DNA of 64,000 nucleotides from Planctomycetota bacterium. GTDB taxonomy: Bacteria > Planctomycetota > PLA2 > JAEUHO01. Every line of letters begins with the position of its first letter. Within the stretch, counting starts at the first letter, position 1. This document shows, one piece after another, positions 14,169-39,062 of the stretch. The stretch spans positions 1 to 64,000 of the forward strand of contig CBDCWP010000033.1 in NCBI GenBank assembly GCA_965223505.1, written 5' to 3'. The position numbers and the translations under genes were made by a program. Under the pieces are notes generated by a model. The model saw only the letters and a list, made by a program, of their open reading frames with translations. It was not told where the DNA came from and did no database searches.

Positions 14169-15065
14169 CTACCGCGGACGATTGGCGGCAATCAGCTCGG
14201 CCAACAGCGTGAACTCGCGCTTGCGCACCGACGTCTTGCGCCATGCCATGCCGATCGTTCGATATGGTCGCGGCTTCGTGAACGGCAGCGTGACCAACGC
14301 GGGATTCGACCGGGTCTCGGCCTCGATCGCGAGCGACGGCAACAGCGTCACGCCGATGCCCGCCGACACCATCTGCACGAGCGTGCTCAGGCTGCTGGCG
14401 CGCACGTCCGCCACCTCGCTCGAACCTGCCGACCGGCAGATGGCCCACGCCTGATCGCGAAGTCAGTGCCCGTCCTCGAGCAGCAGGAGATCACGCCCGT
14501 CGAGGTCCTGCTCGCGCGCACGCTTTCGTTTCGCGAGCGCGTGGGTGTCGGGAACGGCGAGCACGAAGCAGTCTCGAAAGAGCGCCAAGGGCTCCGCGCC
14601 CACGAGGTCGGCCTCCAACGCGAGCAGGAGCAGGTCGAGGTCGCCGTCCGCGAGCGACCGAACGAGCCGGTCGGTGTGATCCTCGCGAAGGAGGAGTCGC
14701 AGGTCCGGAAAGCGGCGACGAATCGGAGGGATCACACTGGGCAAGAGGTAGGGAGCGATGGTCGGGATCACGCCGAGTCGCAGCGTGCCCGTCAGGGGAC
14801 TGCCGTACGCGCCCGCGGCGTCGACCAGCTCGTCGACCTGCGTCAGGACGCTGCGCGCCTGCTCGATGGCGGTCTCCCCCGCGGCGGTGGGCAACACCTT
14901 GCGTCGGTCGCGCTCGAAGAGCTTCACGCCCAGCACGCGCTCGAGCTGCTGAATCTGGGCGCTGAGCCCGGGCTGCGAGACGAACGCGGCCTCCGCGGCC
15001 TTGCGGAAGTTGCGCTCGTTGCCCACGGCCACGAGGTACTCGAGCTGACGCAGCGTCGGTCGCAT
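14169..15065 (-). CDS. oxyR: OxyR, LysR-family H2O2 sensor, with in-frame TGA (putative Sec201) at the peroxidatic Cys position
   Basis: LysR HTH (NFRKAAEAAFVSQPGLSAQI), GVIPTIAPYLLP, LLLEDGH*LRDQAWAIC, RASSLSTLVQMV; 298 aa if TGA 14463-14465 is read through; divergent from ahpC. Confidence 0.9.
14424..14441 (-). promoter_or_regulatory. Putative bacterial SECIS element of oxyR
   Basis: mRNA AUCUGCC-GGUC-GGCAGGU hairpin; G-containing loop begins 28 nt after the UGA. Confidence 0.75.
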
Positions 15066-15084
15066 TGATAACTCCATATTATCA
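15066..15084. promoter_or_regulatory. Putative OxyR/LysR binding palindrome in the oxyR-ahpC intergenic region
   Basis: TGATAA-N7-TTATCA perfect dyad fitting the LysR T-N11-A pattern, in an AT-rich spacer. Confidence 0.65.
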
Positions 15085-15166
15085 GAACGAGACTGTCTTT
15101 CGATTGGAACGATCAGAGAATTCGCGGAGAGTCACGCGCGTCGAACACCCATCAAGGAGATCCAGC

Positions 15167-15706
15167 ATGTTGACCGTCGGAGACCGCTTCCCCCGCTTCA
15201 AGCTCACGGCCGTCGTTTCCTCGAACACGGCGAACGCGTTCCGGGAGATCGACGAGAGCACGTACGAAGGCGACTGGAAGGTCTACTTCTTCTATCCGAA
15301 GGACTTCACGTTCGTCTGCCCGACGGAGCTCGCCGGGTTCGCGAAGCTCAACGACGACTTCCAGGAGCGTGATGCGCAGCTCATCGGCGGCAGCACCGAC
15401 AGCGATTTCGTGCACCTCGCCTGGCGCAAGGACCACCCCGACCTGCAGAACCTCCCCTATCCGCTGCTCTCCGACATCAAGCGCGAGCTCAGCACGGAGC
15501 TCGGCATCCTCGACGCTGCCGAGGGTGTCTGCATGCGCGCGACCTTCATCGTGGATCCGGACGGGATCATCCGCTTCGTGAGCGTCAACGACGGCAGCGT
15601 CGGTCGCAACCCGGCCGAGGTCCTGCGCGTCCTGGACGCCCTGCAGACCGACGAGCTGTGCGCCTGCAACTGGCGCAAGGGCGAAGAGACGCTGCAGATC
15701 GCATAG
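15167..15706 (+). CDS. ahpC: Alkyl hydroperoxide reductase C (2-Cys peroxiredoxin)
   Basis: FYPKDFTFVCPTE, GRN, LQTDELCACNW; RBS AAGGAG. Confidence 0.96.
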   Translation: MLTVGDRFPRFKLTAVVSSNTANAFREIDESTYEGDWKVYFFYPKDFTFVCPTELAGFAKLNDDFQERDAQLIGGSTDSDFVHLAWRKDHPDLQNLPYPLLSDIKRELSTELGILDAAEGVCMRATFIVDPDGIIRFVSVNDGSVGRNPAEVLRVLDALQTDELCACNWRKGEETLQIA

Positions 15707-15751
15707 GGGGATCTCGAAGGCCTGGGGCCCCTACCGACGAAAAGAGCTTCG

Positions 15752-16306
15752 ATGAGCATCGCCGTACTCAAGGACCGCCTCCCGGCGTTCGCCAAGGATG
15801 TGCGCCTGAACCTGGGCGCGCTCGCGGACACGGAGAGCCTCACCCCGCAGCAGCTGTGGGGCACGTTGCTTTGCGCCGCCGCGTCGGCGCGCAACGCCGA
15901 GGTTCTGAAGGCCGTCGCCGAGGAGGCGCGCATCCACCTGGACGACGACGCTTTCGCGGCGGCGCGCGCGGCCGCGTCGATCATGGCGATGAACAACGTG
16001 TACTACCGCTTCGTGCATCACGTCGAAAACGACGTGTACGGCTCGATGCCTGCTCGCCTGCGCATGCAGGTCATCGCGCGGCCCGGCGTGGACAAGCTCG
16101 ACTTCGAGCTCTGGTCGCTGGCCGCGTCGGTCATCCACGGATGCGGCGCGTGCACGAACGCGCACGAGAACAAGGCGCTGCAGCGCGGCGCCTCGCCGGA
16201 GATGGTGCAGGATGTCGCACGCGCGGCGGCGATTCTCCACGCCGCCGCCGTCACGCTCGATGGAGAGGCCGCGCTCGACGGAAGGCCGGCGGCTACGAAC
16301 GCTTAG
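15752..16306 (+). CDS. ahpD: Alkyl hydroperoxidase D
   Basis: AKDVRLNL, MAMNNVYYRF, FELWSLA.S..HGCGAC..AH. Confidence 0.93.
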   Translation: MSIAVLKDRLPAFAKDVRLNLGALADTESLTPQQLWGTLLCAAASARNAEVLKAVAEEARIHLDDDAFAAARAAASIMAMNNVYYRFVHHVENDVYGSMPARLRMQVIARPGVDKLDFELWSLAASVIHGCGACTNAHENKALQRGASPEMVQDVARAAAILHAAAVTLDGEAALDGRPAATNA

Positions 16307-16327
16307 ATTCAGCGAGAAAGGGATCTC

Positions 16328-16762
16328 ATGTCAGACGTCACGAAGGAACTCAACCTGCTCCTCGCCGACTACCAGGTCTACTACCAGAAGCTCCGCAACT
16401 ACCACTGGAACGTACGCGGACCGCGGTTCTTCGAGCTGCACCTGAAGTTCGAAGAGCTGTACAACGGCGCCGCGCTGAAGGTGGACGAGCTCGCCGAGCG
16501 CGTGCTCGCCCTGGGCGAGAAGCCGTACTCCACGCTCGCGGAGCAGCTCGAGCACGCGCGCCTGTCGGAGGATGCGGGCGACCCCGATGCCGAGGCGATG
16601 GTCCGGAATCTCGTCGGAGACATTGAAACCCTGAACGGCGCGCTGCGTCATACGTCCGAAGCGGCGAGCGGCGCCGGCGACGCGGCCACGATGAACATGC
16701 TGGACGGCATGGCGGACGAACAGGAGAAGACCGCCTGGATGCTGAAGGCGTTCCTTTCGTAG
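16328..16762 (+). CDS. dps: Dps ferritin-like DNA-protection protein
   Basis: NYHWNVRGPRFFELHLKFEELY, DELAERV, EKTAWML. Confidence 0.95.
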   Translation: MSDVTKELNLLLADYQVYYQKLRNYHWNVRGPRFFELHLKFEELYNGAALKVDELAERVLALGEKPYSTLAEQLEHARLSEDAGDPDAEAMVRNLVGDIETLNGALRHTSEAASGAGDAATMNMLDGMADEQEKTAWMLKAFLS

Positions 16763-16837
16763 CCATCCCCGGCCGCGCCCGTCAATAATGGCGTCGCCCG
16801 CCCGAACGGCGGACGACGAGAAGGACGGCACGTCTCG

Positions 16838-18508
16838 ATGGGGTTGGACAACTACGAGTTGGTCGAAGAGCTGTTCACGGCGGCGCCGAGCACGTTCTAC
16901 CGAGGTCGCAACAAGATCCTCGGACACGAGCTCCTGGTGCGCCGGCTCTCCATCGACCCGGCGCGCGCCGAGAACGTGCGCGACACGTTCTTCCGCGAGC
17001 AGCGTCTGTCGGCGGCACTGAGCCACCCGCACATCCAGCGTCCCATCGACGTGCTCGAAGAGGACGGCTACCTGTGGTCCGTGCACGAGTATCACAAGCT
17101 CAAGCCGACCACGGAGATGGTCGAGGAGAACGGGCCGATGGAGCTGGCGGAAGCGGCGCGCATCGGTTCACAGGTGGCAGACGCCCTCGCGTTCATGCAC
17201 GCGAAGAACCACATCCACGGCAAGCTCGCGCCGCGGCTGGTCGTCGTGGACGAACGCGGCGACTCCATGTTGATCAACCTCGTGAAGGCCGCGGATCTCG
17301 CGGCGGACGTGTGGCCGCTTCGTCCCGCCGTTCTCGGCCTGACACCGTTCACCGCGCCGGAGGAGTTCCGCGGCGAGCGACCGACGAAGAGCTCCGATGT
17401 CTACGCGCTCGCCGCGACCATGGTGTATTGGGTGAGCGGGATGTGGCCGCGCGGCGGCGCGAACGAAGAAGAGGCCCTCGAGCGCGCGCGCGACGGCGCC
17501 GAGCTGATCGACTTGACCGCGCTGCATCAGCCGTTGCCGCCGACCCTGATCTCCGCGCTGACCGCAGCGCTCGAACCGGATCCGACCGAGCGCCACGGCG
17601 GCGCGGCGGCGTTCGGCTCGATCTTGATCGACATCTTCCAGCGGCAGGCGGCTGAGATCCCGTCCGGGTTCTCCACGGGCGCGCAGCTGCATCCGACCGG
17701 CACGCTGGACCGGGTGCAGATCCTGGGGCGACACGGCGCGGGCGCCTTCGGCGTCGTGCTGCGGGCGGCGGATCCCACGGATTCGTCCGTCTTCGCGGTC
17801 AAGGCGCTCAAGCCGGAGCACCGGGACGACAGCGAGGCGTATGAGCGCTTCGTGCGCGAGGCGCGGGCGCTCCATCAGATCCAGCATCCGAACGTGGTCC
17901 GCATCCACGGGGTCGGCGAGCAGCACGGAACGCCGTACGCGGTGATGGAGTTCATCTCCGGTCCCGACCTTGCCACGACGCTGTTGCGCGACGGCTGCCT
18001 GCCGGCCCCGCGAGCCGCGCGGCTCGGCGCGGGCATCGCGCAGGGGCTGGACGCGATTCACGCCGAAGGCATCGTTCACCGCGATCTGAAGCCGCACAAC
18101 ATCCTCATCGCCGAAGGCGACCGGCCGGTGATCGCGGACTTCGGCGTCGCGCGCAACACCGCGGCGACCCGCATGACGATGACCGGACGGATCGTCGGGA
18201 CGCCGGCGTACATGGCGCCGGAGCAGTTCGACGACGAGCCGGCCGCGCCGTCGGTCGACCTGTTCGCCCTCGGCGCGATCCTCTATGAGATGCTCGCCGG
18301 GCAGACCCCGTTCCCGGCGAAGGACCCGCTCGAGGCGATCCGTGCCATACGCGAAGCACGTCCGGAGCCGTTGCCGGACGACGTGCCGCACCGACTGGCC
18401 GCCATCGTGTCCCGGCTCTTGCGCAAGGACCCGGCCGAGCGCTACCCCAATGCGGCGCTGGTCGCGGACGACCTGCGCAAGGAATCCGAACGGCTCCCCG
18501 TCTCGTAG
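16838..18508 (+). CDS. Tandem Ser/Thr kinase (N-terminal pseudokinase plus C-terminal kinase)
   Basis: Domain 2 has GAGAFG/AVK/HRDLKPHN/DFG/APE; domain 1 has HGKL and NLVK in place of HRD and DFG. Confidence 0.88.
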   Translation: MGLDNYELVEELFTAAPSTFYRGRNKILGHELLVRRLSIDPARAENVRDTFFREQRLSAALSHPHIQRPIDVLEEDGYLWSVHEYHKLKPTTEMVEENGPMELAEAARIGSQVADALAFMHAKNHIHGKLAPRLVVVDERGDSMLINLVKAADLAADVWPLRPAVLGLTPFTAPEEFRGERPTKSSDVYALAATMVYWVSGMWPRGGANEEEALERARDGAELIDLTALHQPLPPTLISALTAALEPDPTERHGGAAAFGSILIDIFQRQAAEIPSGFSTGAQLHPTGTLDRVQILGRHGAGAFGVVLRAADPTDSSVFAVKALKPEHRDDSEAYERFVREARALHQIQHPNVVRIHGVGEQHGTPYAVMEFISGPDLATTLLRDGCLPAPRAARLGAGIAQGLDAIHAEGIVHRDLKPHNILIAEGDRPVIADFGVARNTAATRMTMTGRIVGTPAYMAPEQFDDEPAAPSVDLFALGAILYEMLAGQTPFPAKDPLEAIRAIREARPEPLPDDVPHRLAAIVSRLLRKDPAERYPNAALVADDLRKESERLPVS

Positions 18509-19909
18509 CTACGTCGCGGCCGACGCGACCTTCTTCAGGTGATAGCGGGCGTACGTCTCCGGCACGACGACGTCGGCATGGCCCTGCTTGCGCAGCGTGT
18601 CCGCGAACTCGATCGCCGTCGACTCGTCGCCGTGGACGAGGTAGATCGAAGAGCCCCATTCGCGGGCGGGCGCAAGGAACGCGAGCAGATCCGAGCGGTC
18701 GGCGTGGGCCGAGTAGGCGTTGAGCTTGGTGACGCGCGCACGAACAGGCACGTTGCGACCGAAGATGCGCACCTTCGGGCGTTTCTCGAGGATGCGCCGC
18801 CCCAGCGTGTGCGGCGCGCACCAGCCGACGAACAACACGGTGTTTCCGCGGTCGCCGAGACCGTGCTTGAGGTGGTGCACGATGCGACCGCCCTCGCACA
18901 TGCCGGATCCCGCGATCACGATGAACGGACCGGGACGGTGGTTGAGTCCCTTGCTCTCCTGGCTGCTCGAGATGTAGTGCACGCCCTTCGGGTAGAAGGG
19001 GCGGCCGCCCTCGGACAAGAAGTCTTCGACGTCCTGATCCCAGCACTCGGGATGGTTCGCGAAGACCTCCGTCGCCTTCTCCGCGAGCGGCGAGTCCACG
19101 AACAACGGGCAGCGCGGCAGCGACTCGTCCCGCCACGCCTTGGCGATCGCGTATACGAGGTTCTGGGTGCGGCCGACGCTGAAGGCCGGAATCAAGAGCT
19201 TCCCGTTGGTCTGGACACAGCGGCGAATCTCGTCGCGCAGTCGCGTCTCCGAGATCTCCGTCGGGCCATGTTCGCGGTTTCCGTAGGTGCACTCGCTCAG
19301 GATCGCGTCCGCGCGCGGCAACGGCGCGGGGTCCTTCAGGATCGGATACATCTGCCGCCCGAGGTCGCCGGTGAAATAGATCGTCGGCGCGTTCTCCGCC
19401 TCCAGCAGGACGCCGGCCGAGCCGATGATGTGCCCCGCCTCGCGGTAGGTCGCCTTGACGCCGGGGATGGGCTCGAAGGGCGTCTCGTACGGCACGGTCT
19501 CGAAGAGACCCAGGGCCTTGTCGACGTCCGCCTCCGTGTAGATCGGCTCGATCGGAAGCGCGTCCGGCCGGCGCTTCTTGTTGGCGTAGCGCGCATCCGC
19601 TGCCGCGATGCGCGCGCAGTCGTGCAGCATGGCCTTGCAAAGGGCCTTCGTCGCCGGCGTGGCATAGATCGGCCCGCGGTAGCCGTCGCGAACGAGCGAG
19701 GGAATCGCGCCGCTGTGGTCGATGTGCGCATGGGAGAGCACGAGCGCATCGGTGTCGATGCCGACATGCCGGTTGCGTTCCGTGGACTCGTGCCGCCGTC
19801 CCTGGAACATGCCGCACTCGAGGAGGAGACGCTGTGAACCGTAGCGAAGCACGTGGCGGCTGCCGGTGACCGTTCGCGCCGCCCCGTGACTCTGAAGGGT
19901 GACTTGCAT
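18509..19909 (-). CDS. MBL-fold beta-CASP ribonuclease
   Basis: GAARTVTGS, LSHAHIDHSG, AGHIIGS, ECTYG, SGMCEGGRI, YSAHAD, LVHGD. Confidence 0.93.
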   Translation of the reverse strand: MQVTLQSHGAARTVTGSRHVLRYGSQRLLLECGMFQGRRHESTERNRHVGIDTDALVLSHAHIDHSGAIPSLVRDGYRGPIYATPATKALCKAMLHDCARIAAADARYANKKRRPDALPIEPIYTEADVDKALGLFETVPYETPFEPIPGVKATYREAGHIIGSAGVLLEAENAPTIYFTGDLGRQMYPILKDPAPLPRADAILSECTYGNREHGPTEISETRLRDEIRRCVQTNGKLLIPAFSVGRTQNLVYAIAKAWRDESLPRCPLFVDSPLAEKATEVFANHPECWDQDVEDFLSEGGRPFYPKGVHYISSSQESKGLNHRPGPFIVIAGSGMCEGGRIVHHLKHGLGDRGNTVLFVGWCAPHTLGRRILEKRPKVRIFGRNVPVRARVTKLNAYSAHADRSDLLAFLAPAREWGSSIYLVHGDESTAIEFADTLRKQGHADVVVPETYARYHLKKVASAAT

Positions 19910-19983
19910 GCCGCGTAGTATCGGCAACCGCGTCGCCGCACGCCAGCGCGAGAGACGTGTTCTTTCGACTTGTTCAGCCCCGG

Positions 19984-20412
19984 CTACGCCTCGCGCAGAA
20001 AGCCCTGGATCGTCTCGAGCAGAGCGCCGGCTTCGTACCGCTCCTTGAGAAACCCGTCCGCGTCGACGCCGTCGTGCCGGTCGTGCAGATCCTGCGGGCG
20101 CTGGCCGCTCGAGAGCACGACACGCACGCCGGGCTGGATCTCGCGCATGCGGTGCAGCGCCTCGGTGCCATCCATCTTCGGCATCGTCACGTCGAGGAGA
20201 ACGACGCCGACGTTCTCGGCGTTCTCGCGAAACACGTCGACGGCGGTCGCGCCGTTGTCGGCCTTGAGCGCCGGGATGCCGTTGGCCTCGAGAATCGACG
20301 CCGCGATGTCGCGAATTCTCGGTTCGTCATCGACGACCAGGACGACGGATGCGTTCTTCGGCGCGGCGTTCAATCCAGCTCCCTCGTCCTCGAACTGCTC
20401 AGTATCGCACAT
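19984..20412 (-). CDS. Single-domain response regulator (receiver)
   Basis: VLVVDDE, LLDVTMPKMDG, SSG, FLK. Confidence 0.88.
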   Translation of the reverse strand: MCDTEQFEDEGAGLNAAPKNASVVLVVDDEPRIRDIAASILEANGIPALKADNGATAVDVFRENAENVGVVLLDVTMPKMDGTEALHRMREIQPGVRVVLSSGQRPQDLHDRHDGVDADGFLKERYEAGALLETIQGFLREA

Positions 20413-20458
20413 CTGGTAGGCCGATTCAGAGGTGTGAGTTTCTCGATATGATCCCCGG

Positions 20459-20917
20459 ATGAGCAGCGACGTGGAGATTCGCCAAGGCGCCTTGTCGGAC
20501 GCCGACACGCTCGTCGCGTTCAACACGGAGATGGCGCGCGAGACCGAGGGCAAGGAGCTCGCGCACGAGGTGATCTCCGCAGGCGTGCGCCGGCTCCTCG
20601 AGGACGATGCCGACGGCTTCTACCTCATCGCCGAAATGGACGGCGGGATCGTCGGGTCCCTGATGGTCACGACGGAGTGGAGCGACTGGCGCAACGGCTT
20701 CTTCTGGTGGATCCAGAGCGTGTACGTCGTGCCGGCCGAGCGCCGCAATGGTGTGTACGGGCGCCTATACGCCCGCGTGAAGTCGATGGCGGCCTTGCGC
20801 GACGACGTCTTCGGCTTTCGCCTCTACGTCGACAAGTCGAATGCAGGCGCGCGCCGCGCGTACGAAGCGCTCGGGATGCGGGAAACGGCGTACCGTTTGT
20901 ACGAGGAAGAGCTGTAG
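20459..20917 (+). CDS. GNAT family N-acetyltransferase
   Basis: EWSDWRNG..WWIQSVYV...RRNGVY...RLYVDKSN..A...YEALGM. Confidence 0.9.
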   Translation: MSSDVEIRQGALSDADTLVAFNTEMARETEGKELAHEVISAGVRRLLEDDADGFYLIAEMDGGIVGSLMVTTEWSDWRNGFFWWIQSVYVVPAERRNGVYGRLYARVKSMAALRDDVFGFRLYVDKSNAGARRAYEALGMRETAYRLYEEEL

Positions 20918-21020
20918 GGGCAGCCCTTGTGGCTGCCCAATTGGGCGATGTAGGGACAGCCCTTGTGGCTGCCCAATTGGGCGATGTAGGGGCAGCCCTT
21001 GTGGCTGCCCAATTGGGCGA
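20914..21020 (+). repeat. Three tandem 36-bp GTAG-type REP-like palindromes
   Basis: GTAGGGGCAGCCCTTGTGGCTGCCCAATTGGGCGAT starting at 20914, 20950 and 20986. Confidence 0.9.
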
Positions 21021-21283
21021 CCACAGGGCACGGGAGGCGCTCAAACGGTGCGCAGTGCGAACGGTTCATTGCAATTCCACCAAACCGCAACTTGCCGAAT
21101 TCGATGAACCACGCCGATTTGCAGCGCGTTGAACAAGGCGGCTGACGCGGAAGACCGCCGACGCCGGGTGGCGCGCACCCGTCCCACGCTCCACCCGAAC
21201 TGACATGCTCGACGACGCCTTCTCGGAGTCGCCGACTCACGTTCCGCATCCTTCGGGAATCTCAGCGGGGGAGGTCCGCACCC

Positions 21284-22897: not shown

Positions 22898-22922
22898 CTC
22901 CACTCACCTCATCACGTCCCGA

Positions 22923-22956: not shown

Positions 22957-22990
22957 TCGACGCTTGCCGCGCGTGACCGACCGTGATGCC

Positions 22991-25692: not shown

Positions 25693-25899
25693 ATGGAGTC
25701 CTCCAGCCGCAACGACATCCGTTCCCTGCTCAAGACGTTCGGGATCCAGGCAGACGAGGCCATGGTGGCGCATCTCGCCCGCAACCCGGGCACCGAGCCG
25801 CTGCGCGTGCGATTGACGCTGGCGGACATGACGAACTACGGGGGCAACCCGCCGGACGCGCCGCTGCGCCTCGACGTCGAGGGGGAAATCAACCGCTAA
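25693..25899 (+). CDS. Small hypothetical protein (68 aa)
   Basis: AGGAG RBS, ATG, host-like codon usage (MESSSRNDIRSLLKTFGIQADEA...). Confidence 0.65.
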   Translation: MESSSRNDIRSLLKTFGIQADEAMVAHLARNPGTEPLRVRLTLADMTNYGGNPPDAPLRLDVEGEINR

Positions 25900-26005
25900 C
25901 CCGGTCGAGACAGGACGTTCCGCCTGGGGAATCGGCTGCAACAAGGACCGGTGTGGCTCCGTCTATCTCCCGAACGCGGGAATGGACCCGCGACGGAGTC
26001 GTCCC

Positions 26006-26530
26006 TTGAGCCGCATTGTCATCGCATCCGTCTTCGTCGTTGCCCTGTTCGCCGTCGCGGCAACGACCGCGGATGCCGAGAAGCGGGTCAAGAAGATCCC
26101 GCCGCGCACGGTCTATCTCGAGTCCGACGACCTCACCTGAGTGGTGTGCCAGGGCAAGATCGTCCGCGCGTTGCGCAATGTTCCGGGTGTCAAAGAGGTC
26201 AACAAGGGCTCCCACCGCAAGGAGTTGGAGATCGTTCGAGACGGAAGGAAGAAGAACGACAAGGAACTGACGGCGGCCGTGAAGGGCGTGGGCTTCGCCG
26301 CGTCCGTCGTACCGACGGCGACGGTCAAGCTGACGGTCAGGGGACTGGACTGCGGCGGCTGCGAGGCGCGGGCGAAGGCGACGCTCGAGAAGGCGGCGGG
26401 GACGAAGAGCGCCGCCGTGTCGAAGAAGACGAAACAGGCCGAGATCACCTACGACACGCGCAAGACCACAACCACGAAGCTCGTCGCCGCGCTGAAGAAG
26501 GCCGGATTCCCCGCCGAGAAGAAATCGTAG
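26006..26530 (+). CDS. Secreted double HMA-domain protein with in-frame TGA (putative UxxC)
   Basis: TTG start after GGAG, signal peptide, DDLT*VVC (TGA 26138-26140) in domain 1, GLDCGGC in domain 2. Confidence 0.8.
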
Positions 26531-30095: not shown

Positions 30096-30110
30096 CGTGC
30101 GTCGCTGAGG

Positions 30111-30186
<76 letters not shown>

Positions 30187-30358: not shown

Positions 30359-30386
30359 GTCGGTTCGAATCCGATCGGGCGCTCCA
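30359..30386 (+). repeat. Exact duplicate of the tRNA-Gly(CCC) 3' end (att-like)
   Basis: GTCGGTTCGAATCCGATCGGGCGCTCCA identical to 30159-30186. Confidence 0.9.
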
Positions 30387-30475
30387 ACCGAGTCATCTCC
30401 AAACGGTTTTGCCGAACTCTTGCACGTGCGCGCCGAACCACGCCGTACGCTCCCGCCAGGCACAAGGAGGCAGCC

Positions 30476-31474
30476 ATGCGGACACTCGTGATCGGCCTGT
30501 TGCTACTGGCAACCAACTTCGCGATTGCCGACGACAAGGCGAAGACCGGCGAGCTCGCGCTCGAGATACGGCTGCCAAGGTCCGTCGAGAGCGGGGAGCC
30601 GTTCGCGCTCTCGAGTGTGTTCGTCAACACCGGCAAGACGACGGTTTCGTTCGCGATTCCGGAGCACCTCGAGCACAGGAAGTTCCCCGTCTTCGTGTTC
30701 ACGGACGCCGAAGGCCAACAGTGGCGTCCGTACGACGCGCCCTTCCAGAGCCGATGGACGATCGGTCTCCACGGCGAGGTCGTCGAGCTCGCACCGGGTG
30801 CGAAGCGTGTCTTCGACCACAGGATCGCCAAGTTCGTGCGAGTCCAAGATCCGAACTCCCAGAAGTGGAACTCACCCGCACCCCTGCGCGCCGGGACCTA
30901 CACGGTCACAGCCGTCTACGAGCAGAAGGACAACGAGCTCGTGTACGGCGTGGATCGTGGTCCCGCCAAGCCCTTCGCATCGGAGAAGCGAGCGTACCCG
31001 GGGCTGTGGACCGGCAAGATCACGGCAAGACCCTTCGAAGTCGAAGTCTCGCCCCCGCGCGCATTCACCCTCACCATCGACAGCCCCTATGAGCTCCATC
31101 CCGACAGACCCTTCGAGCTGAACCTCGAGCTTCGCAACGGAAGCGACAAGCCCTTCGTCTTCGACGGCAGCATCCAGGTGATCGGCGCGAGCAAGGCCTA
31201 CGGCTCGGGCGCGCTCGTCTTGCATCCGCCGGGCTACGAGAAGGGCAAGTCCATTACGATCGGGCCCGGCAAGGTGCTGACCTGGAACGTCGACATCGGC
31301 ACACTCGACTTCGAGCCGGGCCACCGCGCCAAGAAGCGCGGCGCCGAGCCGAAGCCGCTTGCCGGCATCCTCCACAAACAGGGCATCTTCCTGCTCCACG
31401 CGAAGATCGTCGATGCCGAGCACGCGCACGTGACGTCGAACGAGCTCTGGCGGATGCGCAAGCACGCGCGGTAG
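30476..31474 (+). CDS. Secreted hypothetical protein with two beta-rich domains
   Basis: AAGGAGG RBS, signal peptide MRTLVIGLLLLATNFAIA. Confidence 0.8.
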   Translation: MRTLVIGLLLLATNFAIADDKAKTGELALEIRLPRSVESGEPFALSSVFVNTGKTTVSFAIPEHLEHRKFPVFVFTDAEGQQWRPYDAPFQSRWTIGLHGEVVELAPGAKRVFDHRIAKFVRVQDPNSQKWNSPAPLRAGTYTVTAVYEQKDNELVYGVDRGPAKPFASEKRAYPGLWTGKITARPFEVEVSPPRAFTLTIDSPYELHPDRPFELNLELRNGSDKPFVFDGSIQVIGASKAYGSGALVLHPPGYEKGKSITIGPGKVLTWNVDIGTLDFEPGHRAKKRGAEPKPLAGILHKQGIFLLHAKIVDAEHAHVTSNELWRMRKHAR

Positions 31475-32043
31475 GAAGACCGGCGCGTAGCCTCGCTCGC
31501 CGACGAGCCCGGCGTACCTTCGTGCCGGCAGTCGCCGAATCACAGCCCCTGCTCGCGTAAATCGTCCACGCGAGGACGAATCCCCGCCGCCGCCAGACGG
31601 CAGGGAGATCGCGGCGCGTAGGGTTCCGAAGAAGCGCCACCGATCGCCGGCAGGAGTTCCTTGGGGGCCATTGCACTCGAGAAGACGAACGACCCCGGCG
31701 TTTCGGATACACGAGAGCGCGAGCGACGCTGATCGGCTCGAGCGCGTCGCCAACATTTCCTTCATGAAGTCCGAGGGCCCTCGGGGCAGCCGACTGCTCG
31801 TTTCACACCGCCACACGAGTACCACACCGCGACAAGGGCTCTCGGAGCCCGTGGAACCCGCCGAAACGGTCGAATAACGGGATTCGACGCGAAAGAGACG
31901 CACGTCGATCCAGCTAGTATCCGTGACCGATGTCGTCGGTACGCCCAGATCGCAGCCCGTGCTAGCGGTCGTTTCCGCCGTGCACCGTCACGGCGCGGGC
32001 GCATTCGACGTGTTGATCGGGGGCTGGTCCGGAGGGGTTGTCC

Positions 32044-35000
32044 ATGTCGGAGAAGCGCGAAGCCGACCAGGAAGCTGGCGAGCCGCAGCAGGAGCGAAAG
32101 ATCCTCAAGGAGGAAACGCTTCACATCTCACCGCCGAAGAAGGTCAAGAAGCCGGTCAAGCCCGAGCCGCCGAAACCAGCCGCGCCGGTCCCGGCGCGCC
32201 TCAAGCATCGGATCGAGCCGTCGCCGAAGCCGAAGGCGCCCAAGAAGAAGAGCGCGCCAAAGCCCAAGGTTCCGCCCGTTGCGAAGGTCAAGGTCCCGCC
32301 GATCGCCGACATCAAGGTGCCGCCCGTCGCCAAGGTGGACCCTGCAGCAGAGAAAGAGAAGGCCGCGAAGGCCGACGACGAGAGCCCGGTGAGGATGGGC
32401 GCCGCGCAGAGCGTGCTCATGCGCATCGAGGAGAAGGCCGGCAAGGTTCCGCGCGTCATGCTGCAGGACATTCCCTCCGGCCCGTCGCCCCTGGTCATGC
32501 CGGGCGCGGACACCGTTCCGAGCGACCGCACCCTCGACCATTACGACATCGCCGGTGAGATCGGCCGCGGCGGCGTGGGCGTCATCTTCAAGGCGCGCGA
32601 CGTGGACCTCGGGCGCGACGTCGCGATCAAGCTTCTGCGCGAGGACATGAGCGGTCGCGTCGAGCTCGCACAGCGCTTCGTCGAAGAAGCGCAGATCAGC
32701 GGGCAGCTGCAGCACCCCGGCATCGCGCCCCTGTACGAGCTCGGCGTGCATCCCGACGGTCGCCCGTACTTCGCCATGAAGCTGATCAAAGGCCGCACGC
32801 TCGCTGGCCTGCTCAACGACCGGCACGACATCGCGAAGGGGCGGCATCGCTTCATTCAGATCTTCGAGAAGATCTGCCAGGCGATGGCGTACGTCCACTC
32901 GCGCGGCGTGATCCACCGCGACATCAAGCCCTCCAACGTCATGGTCGGCGCCTTCGGCGAGGTGCAGGTGATGGACTGGGGCTTCGCGAAGGTCCTCGGC
33001 CGCGGCGGCGTCGAGGACGAGCGCTCGGCGCGGCGGCTGCAGAGCGTCATCAGCATCATCGAGACCGTTCGCAGTGCTGGGGACGACGTAGGCTCGCAGT
33101 CGCTCGCGGGCTCGCTCATGGGCACACCGCCGTACATGCCGCCCGAGCAGGCCTCCGGCAACGTCAACTTGGTCGACGCACGTTCCGACGTGTTCGCACT
33201 CGGCGCGGTGTTGTGCGAGATCCTGACGGGCAAGCCGCCGTACACGCCCACCTCCGACGAGTCGGGCCAGTACGAGATCGTGCAACAGGCGTCGCGCGCG
33301 CAGCTCAACCCCGCACGAGAGCGGCTGGACAAGTGCGGCGCCGACGAAGAGCTCATTCGCATCTGTCGTGACTGTCTCGTGCCCGCCCAGGCGGCCCGTC
33401 CCGCGGACGCGGGCGTGCTGGCAGCGGAGATCGGCAACTACCTCGCGCACGTCGAGGAGCGAGCACGGGAGTCCCAGCTCGCCGCGGTCGCCGAACGCGG
33501 CAAGGCCAACACCGCGCGCGCCGAAGCGAAGGCGGCGGCGGCGAAAGCCGAACACGAACGCCGCGCGAGGCGACTCACGCTCGGACTCGGCTCCGCGGTG
33601 CTCGCGCTGGTGCTGCTGGGCGGCGGCGGGTTCCTGTTCTATCAGAGCAAAGCGAAGGAACGCGAAGCGCAGACCCACCGGGACGTGTCGACGGCACTGC
33701 AAGAGGCGGCGCGCCTGCACGGACTCGCGAAGGCCGATGCGCTCGGCGAATTCTCGAACTGGACGGCCGCGCTGACGAGGGCGAAGCAAGCCAAGGAGGA
33801 CGCCGCATCCGAAGACGGCAGCGCGAGCCTGCTCGCGCGCGCAACGGCGACCCTCGAGGAGATCGAGGCCGAAGAGGCGGCCGCGCGCCAGCGCGCCGAA
33901 CAGGCCGCGCGCGACGCCGCCATGGTCGCGCGACTCGACGAGATCCGCTCCCAGAAGGGCGACGACTTCGTGCCGCAGCGCTCCGAGGACCAGTACTGGC
34001 AAGCATTCAAGGAGTACGGGCTCGACATCGACACCGGCGCGCTCGACGCGTTGGGGGACCAGGTCGCGTCGTCGGCCATCGCGAAGGAGCTGATCGCCGC
34101 GCTTGACGAATGGGCGTGGGTGCGCGCCTACGGCACCGTTCCGCAGTCCAAGGTCGGGCGGCCGACGGGCGTCGCGCAGCGCGCGGACAAGGACAGCTGG
34201 CGCAAGGGACTGCGTACGGCGATTCGCAACAACGACGTCAGTCGTTTGAAGGAGCTGAGCAACAGCGCGAACGTAGCGTCACTGGGCGTGACGTCGGTGC
34301 ATCTGTTGGCCTCCGCGCTCGCGAACAGTGGCGAGCACGAACGCGCCGTCGACCTCCTGCATGAGGCGCAACGGCACCACGCGCAGGACCTGTGGATCAA
34401 CTTCTACCTCGGCCACTGGCTCACACAGCTCTCGCCCCCCCGCTGGGAGGAGGCGGCCCGCGCGTACACCGCCGCCATCGCAATTCGCCCCGAGGCCGCG
34501 GCGACCTGGAACAACCTCGGCATCGCGCTGCAGTCGCGCGGCGCGCTGGACGACGCCGTCGTAGCGTACAAGCGCGCCATCGAGCTGCGCGCCAACTACG
34601 CATCCGCGCACAACAACCTGGGAACCGTCTACGTAGACCGCAAGCAATACAGCGAGGCGCTCGCTTCGTTCCGCTCAGCGGTGCAGGCGCAGGCCGACCA
34701 CGCGCTCGCCTACTTCGGGATCGGCTCCGTGCTCCAGAAGCAGAAGAGGGTCGAAGACGCGATCCACGCCTACAAGCAGGCGCTCACCTACCGTCCGAGT
34801 CTGCACGAGGCCCACGATGCCCTCGTCGCGCTGCTCGGCACGGCGGGTCGCGGCGGCGAGATGTTGGCAGCATCGAAGCGCGTCGTCGACGCCAACCCGG
34901 ACGCGGGTTGGGCGCACCGCAACTACGGCTACGTCCTGTGGTCGCAGGGCCAGACCGACGACGCGATCAAGCACTACAAAAGAGCGGTCGAGCTCGATCC

Positions 35001-36276
35001 GAACGACGGCGTGGCGCAGCACGACTACGGCGTCGCGCTCGGACGCACCGGCGACTGGGACGGCGCGATCAAGGCCATCGAAGCCGCGTGCAAGGCCGAG
35101 CCGGAGGACGCGCTGTACCAGTCCAACCTGGGGTGGGCCCTGGAGAACAAGGGTGATCTCGGGGGCGCGGTGGTCGCGTTCCAGAAGGCCGTCGTCATGG
35201 ATCCCGGACTCGCCGTCGCGCACGACCAGCTGTCCAACGTGTATCTCAAGACCGGCAGGTTGGAGCCGGCCATCGACTCGCGCATCAACGCTGTCAAGGC
35301 CAACCCGGCCGCGTCCGGCTATGCCGCCGGGCTCGGCAACCTGCTCGGACGCGTGATGAGCCGCGCGCGCGCAGAAGCGCTCGTCGCCGAGCGTGTACCC
35401 AACATGTCGAAGGCGAGCCGCGTCAGATTCCAGGCCGAGCTGGCGTACGCGCTGTTCAACACCGGCGGCGATCGGGAGGGCGGGCATGCGGCGCTTCAGA
35501 TCGCGCTCGATCTCGCGCCGGGCGAAGCCTGGCTGCAGGAGCTGAAGGGCCGCTTCCTCTGGGCGGAGTTCGACTTCGAGGGTGCGGAAGCCGCGTTCCG
35601 AAACGCCACGCGCATGGACGCGAACCGCCCCTCCGCGCAAGCCCGCCTGGGATTCGCGCTCCAGAAGCTCGGACGATTCGGCATCGCGCTGGACGCGATT
35701 CGGCGAGGCCACGAGCTGGGCACGGAACAGGGCTGGACCGAGCCATCGGCGGACTGGGTGGAGGAGGCCGAGCGACTCGCAACCGCCCACGCCGAGATCA
35801 TCCTGTATACGACCGGCAAGAAGCAGCCCGCGGACGCGACGATGGGAAGCGCCGTGGGGATGGTGTGTCTCGCAACCGAGCGCTGGAGCAGCGCCGCGAA
35901 GTTCTACGAGGCGGTCGTGCAGGATCCCGAGCTCGACGCAGCGAAGAAGCCCTTCGAGCTCTACAACGCGGCGTGCGCGGCGGCGCGCGCCGGCACCGAA
36001 CCGACGCGCGGCAACGACATGGAGCGCCCGGACGACGACGCGCGCAAGGTGTGGCGCGGAAAGGCGCTCGCCTGGTTGCGCATGAGCCTCAAGCACTGGA
36101 CGACACAGGTCAAGAACCCCGAGATGGCCGCGGTCGCGCGCGGCAACCTGCTGTCATGGCTGCTGGATCCCGACCTCGCGCGTGTGCGCGACGGGGATCA
36201 TCTCGAGGAGCTCGATCCCGCCGAGCGCAAGGCGTTCGAAGCGTTGTGGATCGACGTCGCCACCGCCGTTAAGTGA
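32044..36276 (+). CDS. Ser/Thr kinase with TM segment and TPR repeats
   Basis: GRGGVG, VAIK, HRDIKPSN, DWG, PPEQ; many TPRs (WNNLG.AL, AHNNLG, YNAAC). Confidence 0.93.
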   Translation: MSEKREADQEAGEPQQERKILKEETLHISPPKKVKKPVKPEPPKPAAPVPARLKHRIEPSPKPKAPKKKSAPKPKVPPVAKVKVPPIADIKVPPVAKVDPAAEKEKAAKADDESPVRMGAAQSVLMRIEEKAGKVPRVMLQDIPSGPSPLVMPGADTVPSDRTLDHYDIAGEIGRGGVGVIFKARDVDLGRDVAIKLLREDMSGRVELAQRFVEEAQISGQLQHPGIAPLYELGVHPDGRPYFAMKLIKGRTLAGLLNDRHDIAKGRHRFIQIFEKICQAMAYVHSRGVIHRDIKPSNVMVGAFGEVQVMDWGFAKVLGRGGVEDERSARRLQSVISIIETVRSAGDDVGSQSLAGSLMGTPPYMPPEQASGNVNLVDARSDVFALGAVLCEILTGKPPYTPTSDESGQYEIVQQASRAQLNPARERLDKCGADEELIRICRDCLVPAQAARPADAGVLAAEIGNYLAHVEERARESQLAAVAERGKANTARAEAKAAAAKAEHERRARRLTLGLGSAVLALVLLGGGGFLFYQSKAKEREAQTHRDVSTALQEAARLHGLAKADALGEFSNWTAALTRAKQAKEDAASEDGSASLLARATATLEEIEAEEAAARQRAEQAARDAAMVARLDEIRSQKGDDFVPQRSEDQYWQAFKEYGLDIDTGALDALGDQVASSAIAKELIAALDEWAWVRAYGTVPQSKVGRPTGVAQRADKDSWRKGLRTAIRNNDVSRLKELSNSANVASLGVTSVHLLASALANSGEHERAVDLLHEAQRHHAQDLWINFYLGHWLTQLSPPRWEEAARAYTAAIAIRPEAAATWNNLGIALQSRGALDDAVVAYKRAIELRANYASAHNNLGTVYVDRKQYSEALASFRSAVQAQADHALAYFGIGSVLQKQKRVEDAIHAYKQALTYRPSLHEAHDALVALLGTAGRGGEMLAASKRVVDANPDAGWAHRNYGYVLWSQGQTDDAIKHYKRAVELDPNDGVAQHDYGVALGRTGDWDGAIKAIEAACKAEPEDALYQSNLGWALENKGDLGGAVVAFQKAVVMDPGLAVAHDQLSNVYLKTGRLEPAIDSRINAVKANPAASGYAAGLGNLLGRVMSRARAEALVAERVPNMSKASRVRFQAELAYALFNTGGDREGGHAALQIALDLAPGEAWLQELKGRFLWAEFDFEGAEAAFRNATRMDANRPSAQARLGFALQKLGRFGIALDAIRRGHELGTEQGWTEPSADWVEEAERLATAHAEIILYTTGKKQPADATMGSAVGMVCLATERWSSAAKFYEAVVQDPELDAAKKPFELYNAACAAARAGTEPTRGNDMERPDDDARKVWRGKALAWLRMSLKHWTTQVKNPEMAAVARGNLLSWLLDPDLARVRDGDHLEELDPAERKAFEALWIDVATAVK

Positions 36277-36288
36277 CGGTGTCCGCGC

Positions 36289-36759
36289 TCAGCGTCGGCT
36301 GAGCGCCTTGAGTCCGGCGAGCGACGCGCCGAACCCGCTGCCTGCGCGTTGGGAGACGCGCCACGCCTCGCGCGCGCGTTTCGACGGCTCCGACCGCCGC
36401 TCTTCCACCATCTGCTCCTCGCTCGGCGCCTTCTCCGAAGTCCGCTCCACCCAGCCCCCCAAGAAGAACGCGAGCAGGACGGCGGCCGCTGCCGCGATCC
36501 ACGTACGTCGGATCCGCCGGCGCAGCACGGTCGTGTCCGCCCGTTCGATCAGCTCCTCCGCCGCGATGGCCGGCGGCGTCGCCTCGTCCTCGAAGCGACT
36601 GCCCGCCAGCCCGCGAACGACGTCTTCGACCTCCGCGAGAACGCGGCGATTCTCCGCTGATGCCGCAAGCCACGTCTCGACCCGCCGCTTCTCTACGGCA
36701 TCGAGATCGCCGGTCACGTACAGCGGCAACAGCTCTTCGATCGGTTCACGCATCGACAT
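36289..36759 (-). CDS. Anti-sigma factor (zf-HC2-like N-terminus, Cys-less) with TM
   Basis: EELLPLYVTGDLD..E.RRVE.WL; overlaps the upstream ECF stop. Confidence 0.75.
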   Translation of the reverse strand: MSMREPIEELLPLYVTGDLDAVEKRRVETWLAASAENRRVLAEVEDVVRGLAGSRFEDEATPPAIAAEELIERADTTVLRRRIRRTWIAAAAAVLLAFFLGGWVERTSEKAPSEEQMVEERRSEPSKRAREAWRVSQRAGSGFGASLAGLKALSRR

Positions 36760-37267
36760 GAGGGGGTCCTCCGGAGGTGAGTGACAGCTTGCGCCGAAGC
36801 GCGAGAATGCCGCGGCGAAAGTGCACCTTCGCCGCGCCTTCACTGATCTCGAGCGCGCGGCTCAGCTCCGTGAAGGTCATCTGTTGCAGGATGCGCAGGC
36901 TCACGACCTCGCGCTGTCGTACCGGCAGCCGCGCAAGCGACTCGTGCAGGCGCCGGCGCTCCTCCTGCGCCATGACGCTCGCATCCGGCCCGCGCTCGGC
37001 CGTGACCGTCCCTGCGTCGTAGGGGTCGGGCACGAGCCGAACGCGCGCGCGTCGCCGGGCACGATCGATCGCGCGATTCGTAGCGACACGGGCCAGCCAG
37101 CCCGCGACGCGCTCGGCATCGACGGCGGACGAGCGCTCATAGAAGGCCAGGAGCGCGTCTTGCGCCACCTCGAGCGCATCCTCGCGATTGCCGAGCACGC
37201 GATAGGCCGCCGCGTACGTCGAGCCCTGATGAGCCTTCACGATCGTGGCGAAGCGTCCCGCGTCCAT
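36746..37267 (-). CDS. ECF sigma factor
   Basis: AYRVLGNREDA..VAQD, WLARVATNRAID, LPVRQREVV.LR, AAKVHFRRG. Confidence 0.9.
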   Translation of the reverse strand: MDAGRFATIVKAHQGSTYAAAYRVLGNREDALEVAQDALLAFYERSSAVDAERVAGWLARVATNRAIDRARRRARVRLVPDPYDAGTVTAERGPDASVMAQEERRRLHESLARLPVRQREVVSLRILQQMTFTELSRALEISEGAAKVHFRRGILALRRKLSLTSGGPPHVDA

Positions 37268-37278
37268 GGCCCCGTTCG

Positions 37279-38295
37279 CTACTTCTCGACGACCGACGTG
37301 GCGACGAGCACGTGCCGCCGGTCGCGCAGATCAAGTCCGTGAAACGTCCAGACCAACGCGCTGCCGTCGCGCTCGTCGGCATTGCTTCCGACCACGCGCC
37401 CCGGCATCTCGAGACGGACGACGAAGTCCTCGTCGCCCAGGTCGTGCGACAGGTCGAAGTCGAACTGCTCCCGCAGGAGCGCTTTCTGCAACGCCAGCGC
37501 CTGCGCGTCCGAGAGCGACAGCGCCGCGCGCGCGCGTTCGACGACCAACGCCCGCATCGCTTTCTGCGCCTTCGCAGCGAACGCCTCGACCTCGCCCGCG
37601 TCGCGTGAGAGCACGGTGACCACTTTCTCGGGCGCGAGGTGCGTTCGACAGTGCTCGGCAATCGCGTCGCGAACGTCGAGCTGCGCGTCGAGCAGTCCTT
37701 TCGCATCGGGCGCGACCGCAGCCAGCGCGCGATCGGCCCACAGCTGCATGCTCATGCGCTCGTAGCGGACCATCGCGTCGATCAGGCGCAGCCGGTCCTC
37801 GAGGGAGAGCTCGGGGATCGCGTCGGGATCCTCGTAGAGCGCCTCGATCTCCGGCGGGAAGCACACGCGCGAGAAGTAACGGTAGTCGGCCCAGTCACGG
37901 GGTTCGTACACGCGCGTAAAGCGGTAGTACGTGCGCCCGGCCTCCTCGCGGATCGAAACCGAGGTGCGAAAGCGAAGAACGCGCTCCGCGAAGGGATCCC
38001 CCTCGGCCGCGAACGACGTCGGCATGGCCTCGGCCGAGTCGTAGCTCGCGCGCGCGGTCCAGGTGTGCTCGACGTCTCCGTCATCGCGAGTCTCGACCGT
38101 GCGCGACGTCTCGTAGCCCTGGCCGTCGGGCTTGCGAACCGGACCGTAGTCCAGGTCGTCGCCGTCGCCGATGAAGGCATGCTCGACGTCGATGCGACCG
38201 TCGGCGTGAAGAACGATCGCTTCCTTGCGTTTCAGACAACCGCCCAGGAGCAAGGGCACGGCCAGAATCGCGATGATGGCGTGTCGGCGCTTCAT
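37279..38295 (-). CDS. Hypothetical lipoprotein
   Basis: Lipobox LLGGC; GAGGTG RBS. Confidence 0.75.
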   Translation of the reverse strand: MKRRHAIIAILAVPLLLGGCLKRKEAIVLHADGRIDVEHAFIGDGDDLDYGPVRKPDGQGYETSRTVETRDDGDVEHTWTARASYDSAEAMPTSFAAEGDPFAERVLRFRTSVSIREEAGRTYYRFTRVYEPRDWADYRYFSRVCFPPEIEALYEDPDAIPELSLEDRLRLIDAMVRYERMSMQLWADRALAAVAPDAKGLLDAQLDVRDAIAEHCRTHLAPEKVVTVLSRDAGEVEAFAAKAQKAMRALVVERARAALSLSDAQALALQKALLREQFDFDLSHDLGDEDFVVRLEMPGRVVGSNADERDGSALVWTFHGLDLRDRRHVLVATSVVEK

Positions 38296-38480
38296 TGTTC
38301 ACCTCACTTCGCTTCAAGGACGAGCGGCGGTCGCCAATCGGATACAAGAACCACGGTTGCTTGCCAGCGTGGATCATAGCGACTCGCACTCACCAGCGGA
38401 CGGTGAGGTGCGGCACGCACCGCCCGACCTGCATGAGCGCGAGCGCGACCAACGCGCAGAGCGCAAGCAGCGTCGCAATC

Positions 38481-39062
38481 CTACGGAGCATGGCGCTCGG
38501 TCGCGGCGGGCACAGCGCACACGGCACCTTGCGAGAATTCCTGCGACTCGACACCAAAGGCGTGATCGAAGCGTGCACGGAAGTTCTCCCATGCGATGCA
38601 CGCCGTCAGCTCGACCAACTGCGCGTGGTCGTAGCGCGCCCGCAGCCGTGCGAACAGCCGGTCGTCGACGGAGACCGGCGTTCGCGTCATCTGCTCGGCG
38701 TACTCGAGGACGTCGCGCTCCTCATCGGTGTAGACCGCCGCACCGCGCCACACCCCGAGGCTGCTGATCTTCGCCGGTTCCAGTCCGAGCTCTCTGCCGA
38801 CGGCAGAGCCGATGTCCAGTCAGAACGGACAGCCGACGAGCTGCGCGACCTTCAGGTTGGCGAGCTCTTTCAGCGCAGGCGGCAGGCGCCGGCACTTCTC
38901 GAGCTTCATCTCCATCGCGCCGTATCCGCGCAAGACACGCGAGTGGTGCGCGAGGATGCGAAGCGGCGTGATCACCTCGCCGACACGCCGCTTGCAATAC
39001 CAAAAGGCCGCCCGCGCGAGCAGCCCGGCCTTGTCGTCGGTAACGCCTTCGATGCGCGACAT
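38481..39062 (-). CDS. AhpD/carboxymuconolactone-decarboxylase-like protein with in-frame TGA (putative CxxU)
   Basis: LKELANLKVAQLVGCPF*LDIG...YTDEER..LEYAEQMT...QLVELT..IAWENFRARF; TGA 38820-38822; 193 aa if read through. Confidence 0.88.
38792..38808 (-). promoter_or_regulatory. Putative bacterial SECIS element of the CMD-like gene
   Basis: mRNA CUCUGCC-GUC-GGCAGAG hairpin; loop begins 18 nt after the UGA. Confidence 0.75.

Follow-up and report, generated by a model that had tools for sequence, protein, structure and literature searches.

A candidate selenocysteine form of OxyR and two SECIS-like hairpins with a common stem in a Planctomycetota genome

We analyzed a 64,000-nucleotide stretch of DNA from a Planctomycetota bacterium, hereafter the window, which comprises positions 1-64000 of contig C33 in a 5.15-Mb assembly of 44 contigs at 67.4% GC. 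On its minus strand lie two genes, an oxyR gene and a CMD/AhpD-like gene, each with one in-frame UGA and each with a small hairpin just 3' of it; the two hairpins are nearly identical (Table 1). From comparisons within this genome and with others, we consider it likely that both hairpins are functional selenocysteine insertion sequence (SECIS) elements, with the loop and a GC-rich stem as the shared determinant and the matching letters of the stems a coincidence. If the oxyR hairpin is a functional SECIS, it follows that oxyR encodes a selenoprotein, that is, a form of this peroxide sensor with selenocysteine (Sec).

Two genes with an in-frame UGA and a downstream hairpin

The oxyR product carries the Pfam domains HTH_1 (PF00126) and LysR_substrate (PF03466), and its top NCBIfam match is OxyR (NF008361, 282.5 bits), ahead of the next by 79 bits. 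The 17 best matches among solved structures are without exception chains of OxyR or of a hydrogen-peroxide-inducible activator. Aligned with chain 6g1b (C. glutamicum OxyR), the U of LLLLEDGH-U-LRDQAWAIC stands at the peroxidatic Cys of LLLLDDGH-C-LHDQIVDLC; with respect to E. coli, position 205 aligns with the peroxidatic Cys199 and Cys214 with the resolving Cys208. The pocket Thr, Thr, His and Arg, together with the resolving Cys nine residues downstream, are all kept (GVIPT, EDHT, GH, WAIC and IGMAWR in the comparison with 6g1b). The peroxidatic Cys of the GHC motif is not present to the letter, the codon being UGA and its predicted reading Sec (Sec205). Since the chalcogen differs at the peroxidatic position, the product is a variant and not a literal member of OxyR on that feature.

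The CMD-like product matches Pfam CMD (PF02627) at 41.6 bits, above the cut-off of 23. Its top NCBIfam match is NF053654, 'YciW-related (seleno)protein', at 128 bits; this lies below the equivalog cut-off of 310, so the protein is a more distant member. CMD/AhpD-like CxxU proteins already stand among the known prokaryotic selenoproteins in the family table, as excerpted, of a 2026 review (PMC13188914).

The distance from the UGA is 28 nt to the loop and 21 nt to the stem foot in oxyR, and 18 nt and 11 nt, respectively, in the CMD-like gene. The 5' arm of the oxyR hairpin contains the resolving-Cys codon. When short flanks are included, the folding energies become -9.8 kcal/mol for oxyR and -11.3 kcal/mol for the CMD-like gene. 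A preliminary description of this DNA had placed both hairpins here, each 3' of an in-frame UGA, and we confirm their positions, on the minus strand. It had also noted that they encode different peptides in different frames, I-C-R-S-A-G (AUC UGC CGG UCG GCA GGU) and S-A-V-G-R (UCU GCC GUC GGC AGA); the codon registers do differ, and the match is one of RNA and not of protein. Its proposal that the UGAs are recoded and the hairpins are SECIS elements is supported by the published model, by enrichment and by conservation, as described below.

Table 1. Features of the window discussed in the text (energies are those of the bare hairpins).
Feature	Position	Strand	Details
oxyR	14172..15077	-	302 codons with one UGA read through; stop codon 14169-14171; translated with TGA=U
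oxyR UGA, predicted Sec205	14463..14465	-	context LLLEDGH-U-LRDQAWAIC
oxyR candidate SECIS hairpin	14424..14441	-	AUCUGCC-GGUC-GGCAGGU; 7 bp; loop GGUC 14431-14434; -9.2 kcal/mol
CMD/AhpD-like (YciW-related) predicted selenoprotein gene	38484..39062	-	193 codons; active-site motif C-P-F-U
CMD-like gene UGA, predicted Sec	38820..38822	-	in C-P-F-U
CMD-like gene candidate SECIS hairpin	38792..38808	-	CUCUGCC-GUC-GGCAGAG; 7 bp; loop GUC 38799-38801; -10.0 kcal/mol
Cluster divergent from oxyR	15065..16762	+	three genes; NCBIfam and Pfam matches
AhpC-type peroxiredoxin	15065-15706	+	true start probably further in
AhpD-like CMD protein	15752-16306	+	NCBIfam/Pfam
Dps/ferritin-like protein	16328-16762	+	NCBIfam/Pfam
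HMA-domain gene	25832-26527	+	TGA 26138-26140, context L-T-U-V-V-C
tRNA gene	3168-3239	+	
tRNA gene	30111-30183	+	
c-di-GMP-I riboswitch aptamer	52103-52187	-	Rfam RF01051, 62 bits

In the Fig. 2 legend of the same review (PMC13188914), the bacterial SECIS (bSECIS) model has a loop of 3-9 nt, a stem of 4-16 bp, a position 16-37 nt from the UGA and an energy of at most -7.5 kcal/mol. The review, as excerpted, further gives a G at one of loop positions 1-2, mostly followed by G or U. Both hairpins lie within these ranges, with loops of 4 nt (oxyR) and 3 nt (CMD-like gene) on stems of 7 bp, loop starts of GGUC and GUC, spacings of 28 and 18 nt, and bare-hairpin energies of -9.2 and -10.0 kcal/mol. 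The setting agrees as well, as in both genes the in-frame UGA is aligned with a Cys of the homologues and the genome has selA, selB, selC and selD.

The genome is equipped for selenoprotein synthesis. It encodes selA, a selB with an open frame of 662 codons, a selD with one internal TGA of its own, and a tRNA-Sec gene. GGUC also forms part of the loop that SelB reads in E. coli fdhF, with contacts to the G and the U. An Rfam scan of the window returned no match to a SECIS-type family.

We scanned the genome de novo and obtained 83 TGAs with coding-like frames on both sides, 32 of which were sent to Pfam together with the HMA-domain gene of the window and selD. A Pfam domain spans the TGA in 15 of them (AhpC/TSA, 5; thioredoxin-like, 7, including a DsbD C-terminal domain; deiodinase-like, 2; DUF3179, 1), and a sixteenth case with a domain across the TGA is an ArsC-family gene. 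These 15 genes, the HMA gene and SelD, whose NCBIfam match spans its TGA, make up our reference set of 17 other supported Sec-UGAs. The predicted selenoproteome is rich and of aerobic type, with at least 17 genes beyond oxyR and the CMD-like gene. A Sec-type formate dehydrogenase, sought in the genome as a positive control, was not found; the molybdopterin oxidoreductase matches lack an internal stop and all score below the cut-off.

Hairpins of the type seen in the window are strongly enriched after these codons. Our strict detector required at least 5 bp, a loop of 3-5 nt starting with GU or GGU, a position 16-30 nt after the codon and at most -6 kcal/mol, with no bulges. It was positive for 10/17 other Sec-UGAs, compared with 6/663 TGA stops of long open reading frames, 63/6760 random codons and 25/2769 Cys codons, which amounts to a background of ~0.9% and a ~60-fold enrichment. 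The corresponding counts are 8/17, 23/663, 323/6760 and 133/2769 with the published bSECIS model, and 10/17, 116/663, 1216/6760 and 496/2769 when any hairpin is allowed. The oxyR and CMD-like hairpins both pass the strict detector and the published model. Because a strict hairpin is rare after ordinary codons, two chance matches in these two genes are very unlikely.

Conservation in other genomes and further candidates

Recoding is best supported by the way in which the TGA, the frame behind it and a hairpin are conserved in many genomes; the preliminary description had given this rank to the resemblance between the two hairpins. Codon 205 of oxyR is TGA in six further representative genomes, seven with that of the window. 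Three belong to other genera of the same family (G003, G001 and G043), two to a second family (G229 and G244) and one to a third (G321). The remaining OxyR matches in the representative-genome searches read GH-C, and a search of genome contigs with the single oxyR protein returned only 6 distant OxyRs, all of Cys type.

Metagenomes were searched with a degenerate DNA pattern for [EQ]-D-G-H-TGA-x-R-[DE]-Q-A, which matched 17 stretches. Sixteen are OxyR genes in which the TGA comes after ~200 codons and is followed by an open frame of 58-114 codons (the lowest value reflects the end of a contig); the other match (L108) is an unrelated gene and was dropped. This brings the Sec-type oxyR genes to 23, from 7 genomes and 16 metagenome contigs (among loci L006-L008, L051, L069, L074 and L107-L124). 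The identity of the others to the window oxyR is 48-66% before the TGA and 44-66% after it, and the similarity of these ranges indicates that both halves of the gene are under similar constraint. We also examined protein clusters, taking the 120 closest of 4017 homologue clusters with the N-terminal 204 residues as the query. Among these 120, 41 are no longer than 240 residues, and 41/41 end exactly at ...DGH; Cys occupies the position of Sec205 in 77 of the 79 full-length clusters. Two Cys-type homologue clusters bear the source name 'Myxococcota bacterium', which is a hint only as to taxonomy.

A hairpin accompanies the TGA. In its short-loop form it follows the codon in 18/20 distinct Sec-type sequences versus 2/32 of Cys type, and under the published model in 16/20 versus 4/32. 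Its position varies among three placements. In the first, it lies around the V-C codons, ~20 nt from the UGA; its loop is CGUGU or GUC, and its arms are, for example, CGCUCGC/GCGAGCG, GCUGGCG/UGCCAGC or CCUGGC/GCCAGG. The second, at 28 nt, is the CUGCC-GGUC-GGCAG of the window, which is restricted to L006, L007 and L112 (3/23); in L112 the outermost pair changes from A-U to G-C with the core identical, and L007 has the same core. The third is GGCCC-GU[GC]-GGGCC, 33-34 nt from the UGA. We tried a single structure for all Sec-oxyR hairpins and rejected it, as neither register fits all 22 sequences (67.7% and 56.4% of cells paired), a consequence of the three placements.

The closest Cys-type relative examined (G010) reads GUC UGC CGA UCG GGA at the hairpin site and is two base changes away from the full hairpin of the window oxyR, namely CGA to CGG, which is synonymous, and GGA to GCA. 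A quick maximum-likelihood tree was computed from 54 OxyR rows, of which 20 are Sec-type, after three short sequences and L108 had been excluded. It requires 8 changes of the Sec label, and at least 3 changes remain when only the well-supported branches are counted. Such a tree fits the three hairpin placements, and both would fit a Cys/Sec switch that was repeated in OxyR, or a SECIS that was rebuilt.

The CMD-like family conserves its hairpin across the phylum. We sampled 401 genomes and obtained 23 matches in 22 of them, of which 20 contain a TGA (one each). All 20 TGA forms have the TGA at the U of C-x-x-U with a hairpin behind it, and no hairpin was found in either of the two Cys forms examined (L090 and L105). 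Most of these hairpins read UCUGCC-GU[CG]-GGCAGA, with the stem as in the window gene and coding for S-A-V-G-R; it is because the stem encodes these residues that it is conserved across the phylum. When these 20 sequences are aligned, pairing reaches 81.4% of cells, compared with 36-49% for slid partners, and there are 17 double-change cells, a value matched by 0/500 shuffles. The U-A pair within CUGCC/GGCAG is UA in 11, GC in 4 and CG in 3. The family thus conserves the structure and not the letters.

The genome holds further in-frame TGAs of interest. The HMA-domain gene has its TGA in a context where HMA domains usually carry CxxC, and a Cys-type second HMA domain follows the TGA-bearing stretch; with our detector, no canonical hairpin turned up downstream of this TGA, which itself lies outside the Pfam hit. 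Two deiodinase-like genes (Pfam T4_deiodinase; C7:88282(+) and C24:62874(-)) encode N-terminal EF-hands and have their TGA in T-U-G-P-F and T-U-Q-P-F. Eight more TGAs lie in coding-like frames without a Pfam family: C39:7798(-), C44:232837(-), C43:73840(+), C25:5367(-), C44:227969(+), C38:23616(+), C21:433793(-) and C5:43516(+). Six of the eight have a Cys within 4 residues (e.g., G-C-U-G-D-G, F-C-U-A-N-G and G-C-T-U-N-N), and five are followed by a hairpin with a G[GU] loop. These eight genes may encode uncatalogued selenoproteins.

The shared stem and alternative readings

The exact pattern CTGCC-N3/4-GGCAG occurs at 11 sites in the genome, two of which are the oxyR and CMD-like hairpins. 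The stems of other SECIS hairpins are unrelated to it, for example CCAGGUG-GGU-CACCUGG, CGGGAUCG-GUUU-CGAUCCCG, GCCGCUG-GUC-CAGCGGC and CGCGGGG-GUU-CCCCGCG. The feature that the other selenoprotein genes have in common is the start of the loop, G(G)U, in many cases as GUC or GGUC, at a distance of 18-28 nt from the UGA. For two hairpins drawn from the 6370 strict-type ones of the genome, the probability of identical top five pairs is 0.0031, or ~1 in 323, so that ~0.24 such coincidences are expected among the ~13 SECIS hairpins.

We weighed a partial convergence, in which SelB prefers an apical GCC-G(G)UC-GGC module that is under selection, and the lower CU/AG part of the stem is due to chance. 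GCC-GGUC-GGC or GCC-GUC-GGC is found in oxyR, the CMD-like gene, the deiodinase-like gene on contig C24 and an AhpC/TSA gene on contig C5, about 4 of 13 SECIS hairpins, whereas GCC/GGC forms the top three pairs of only 438/6370 background hairpins (6.9%). This excess makes some selection on the top of the stem possible. However, the numbers are small and the pattern was noticed after looking; many SECIS hairpins of the genome close otherwise (G-C with GGU, GUUU or GUU), and other Sec-oxyR genes use CGC-CGUGU-GCG and CCC-GUG-GGG. We regard this explanation as unlikely.

The preliminary description went further and took the whole of UCUGCC-(G)GUC-GGCAG, stem included, as the recognition motif of this organism's SelB. 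The rarity of the pattern speaks for it, as 2 of only 11 sites follow Cys-aligned UGAs, and so does the over-representation of GCC/GGC closing pairs. As a genome-wide signal, however, the motif had to be rejected, since just these two sites follow Sec-UGAs. The stem comes after 0/17 other supported Sec-UGAs and occurs in 3/23 Sec-type oxyR genes, the U-A pair covaries freely in the CMD-like family, and the expected number of coincidences is as given above. That description had itself named enrichment in known selenoprotein genes as the check on its proposal; the absence of the motif from the 17 other genes with supported Sec-UGAs, SelD included, is part of what it had said would count against it. 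An organism-specific motif of this length is thus very unlikely.

The identity of the two stems is best read as a coincidence, with each stem explained by the history of its own gene. Judging from the alignments, the CMD-like stem is old and built on S-A-V-G-R codons, and the oxyR stem is lineage-specific and built on C-R-S-A-G. On this evidence, the putative SelB motif is better described as a stable GC-rich stem with a G(G)U(C) loop.

Several observations weigh against our reading of the two hairpins as SECIS elements and of oxyR as a selenoprotein gene. At 67% GC the folding energies are unremarkable, with z-scores of -1.90 and -0.08 for 60- and 48-nt stretches and of -1.35 and -1.73 for the bare hairpins; folding energy was dropped as evidence for a SECIS, as such z-scores are too weak in GC-rich DNA. 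The strict detector misses 7/17 other Sec-UGAs, and the best hairpin after the Sec-UGA of SelD (C8:38345) has the loop ACCUUGGA, outside the rule of G(G)U first. The loop consensus is therefore loose, and either SelB tolerates other loops, or the real element of SelD is a bulged structure that the detector missed. The reference set of 17 contains the HMA gene and three thioredoxin-like members whose Pfam scores fall short of the gathering score, and the folds of the candidates had already been seen when those to be sent to Pfam were chosen, the criterion for inclusion being the protein-family match. The excess of GCC/GGC tops belongs here as well. For OxyR itself, the score against NF008361 is under the curated NCBIfam cut-off of 329, and among 32 loci with flanks of 0.7-1.5 kb, tblastn found ahpC beside oxyR at the locus of the window only. 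Finally, we infer SelB binding, Sec insertion and a selenenylsulfide switch from sequence, folding potential, enrichment, conservation and covariation.

Two alternatives deny the recoding altogether. The hairpins could serve ribosome pausing or mRNA stability, with the UGA read in another way, for example by near-cognate insertion of Cys or Trp. GC-rich coding RNA does fold easily, and some hairpin follows 18% of random codons. Yet the genome has a complete Sec system, the loop and spacing fit the SelB-type model and are ~60-fold enriched after Sec-UGAs, and the Cys forms lack the hairpin (0/2 in the CMD-like family; all but 2 of 32 in oxyR), which makes such a role extremely unlikely. That the oxyR TGA is a true stop, through a pseudogene, a split gene or an assembly error, with a fortuitous hairpin and the CMD-like gene as the only selenoprotein gene, is scarcely credible: gene callers do end the protein at 200 residues, the coding score falls from 0.61 per codon before the TGA to 0.37 after it and OxyR is not among the catalogued selenoproteins, but 23 sequences share the TGA at this codon and have a conserved, unbroken frame behind it, 41/41 short clusters end at the same residue, the hairpin follows in 18/20 Sec-type versus 2/32 Cys-type sequences, and random decay would not strike the sensing Cys codon alone.

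A predicted selenium switch and its relation to known systems

Taking the two hairpins as SECIS elements, we propose the following sequence of events. SelB carrying Sec-tRNA(Sec) would bind the hairpin at its apical G(G)UC loop, which lies 28 nt (oxyR) or 18 nt (CMD-like gene) past the UGA, and deliver selenocysteine at that codon in place of termination, so that Sec205 would be inserted in OxyR. H2O2 would then oxidize the Sec205 selenolate to a selenenic acid, which would condense with Cys214 to form a selenenylsulfide. OxyR with this bond is predicted to be in the active conformation and to turn on the adjacent ahpC-ahpD-dps genes.

The neighborhood of oxyR fits such a role. The divergent cluster encodes an AhpC-type peroxiredoxin, an AhpD-like protein and a Dps/ferritin-like protein, which would be a textbook setting for an OxyR regulon and gives context to the predicted H2O2-dependent activation. 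The longest ahpC open reading frame, with a TTG start at 15065, overlaps the region of the oxyR start codon at window positions 15065-15077. The homology to AhpC starts at about residue 35, so ahpC probably starts inside this frame, in which case there would be room for a short divergent promoter region. Elsewhere in the window we noted two tRNA genes and a c-di-GMP-I riboswitch aptamer.

The literature we consulted does not list a selenoprotein of this kind. OxyR and LysR are absent from the prokaryotic selenoprotein family table, as excerpted, of the 2026 review (PMC13188914), and a 2022 review names LysR only as a selenium-associated regulator and not as a selenoprotein. A full-text literature search for Sec-OxyR, with subscription journals and supplements outside its scope, found no report. 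Excerpts of a 2020 study (PMC7231847) describe how theoretical chemists modelled Sec at the sensing position of OxyR and computed a kinetic and thermodynamic advantage; Sec variants of OxyR were, according to these excerpts, undiscovered at that time. Sec-OxyR would thus be a new variant of a classic peroxide sensor, whereas the CMD-like CxxU family is already known.

We lean, with some reserve, towards a broader view in which Sec-OxyR is natural, recurrent and uncatalogued, and the first selenoprotein transcription factor. It would act as a selenenylsulfide sensor of H2O2, probably faster and more reversible than the thiol form. If this is true, its synthesis would need SelB, Sec-tRNA and the SECIS within the gene, and the oxidative-stress regulon would for that reason depend on the supply of selenium. 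The same view holds that there were at least three Cys/Sec switches, each time with the SECIS built elsewhere within the same short run of codons.

As elements, the two hairpins would be ordinary SECIS and show how little of the element is specific in sequence, namely that any stable stem will do beneath a loop starting with G(G)U. They matter as a pointer, as they would certify the read-through of oxyR and with it a natural selenium form of the best-studied bacterial peroxide sensor. Such a form opens to study what selenium gains a sensor in rate, in resistance to over-oxidation and in reset, and how the regulation of oxidative stress is coupled to selenium status. The three hairpin placements in Sec-oxyR amount to a small natural experiment in the invention of a SECIS inside constrained coding sequence. 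There is also a practical side, as gene callers shorten Sec-OxyR to ~200 residues and 41 of the 120 closest clusters (of 4017) are so affected.

In comparison with known systems, both hairpins resemble the bSECIS, whose prototype is that of E. coli fdhF read by SelB, in being hairpins within the reading frame, 3' of a Sec-UGA, with a small loop of G followed by G or U and a stable GC-rich stem. They depart from it in no essential way; the two genes have different spacings (18 and 28 nt), and the oxyR hairpin is placed on the resolving-cysteine codon. The CMD-like protein agrees with the CMD/AhpD-like CxxU selenoproteins (PF02627; NF053654) in its CMD fold, its C-P-F-U motif and its family-wide candidate SECIS, with no notable difference. 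The oxyR product shares with the OxyR proteins of E. coli, P. aeruginosa (4x6g) and C. glutamicum (6g1b) the domain architecture, GH-[C/U]-L-R-D-Q, the resolving Cys at +9 and the pocket Thr/Thr/His/Arg, and its gene shares with theirs the divergent ahpC-ahpD-dps cluster; unlike them, it is predicted to carry Sec in place of the peroxidatic Cys199.

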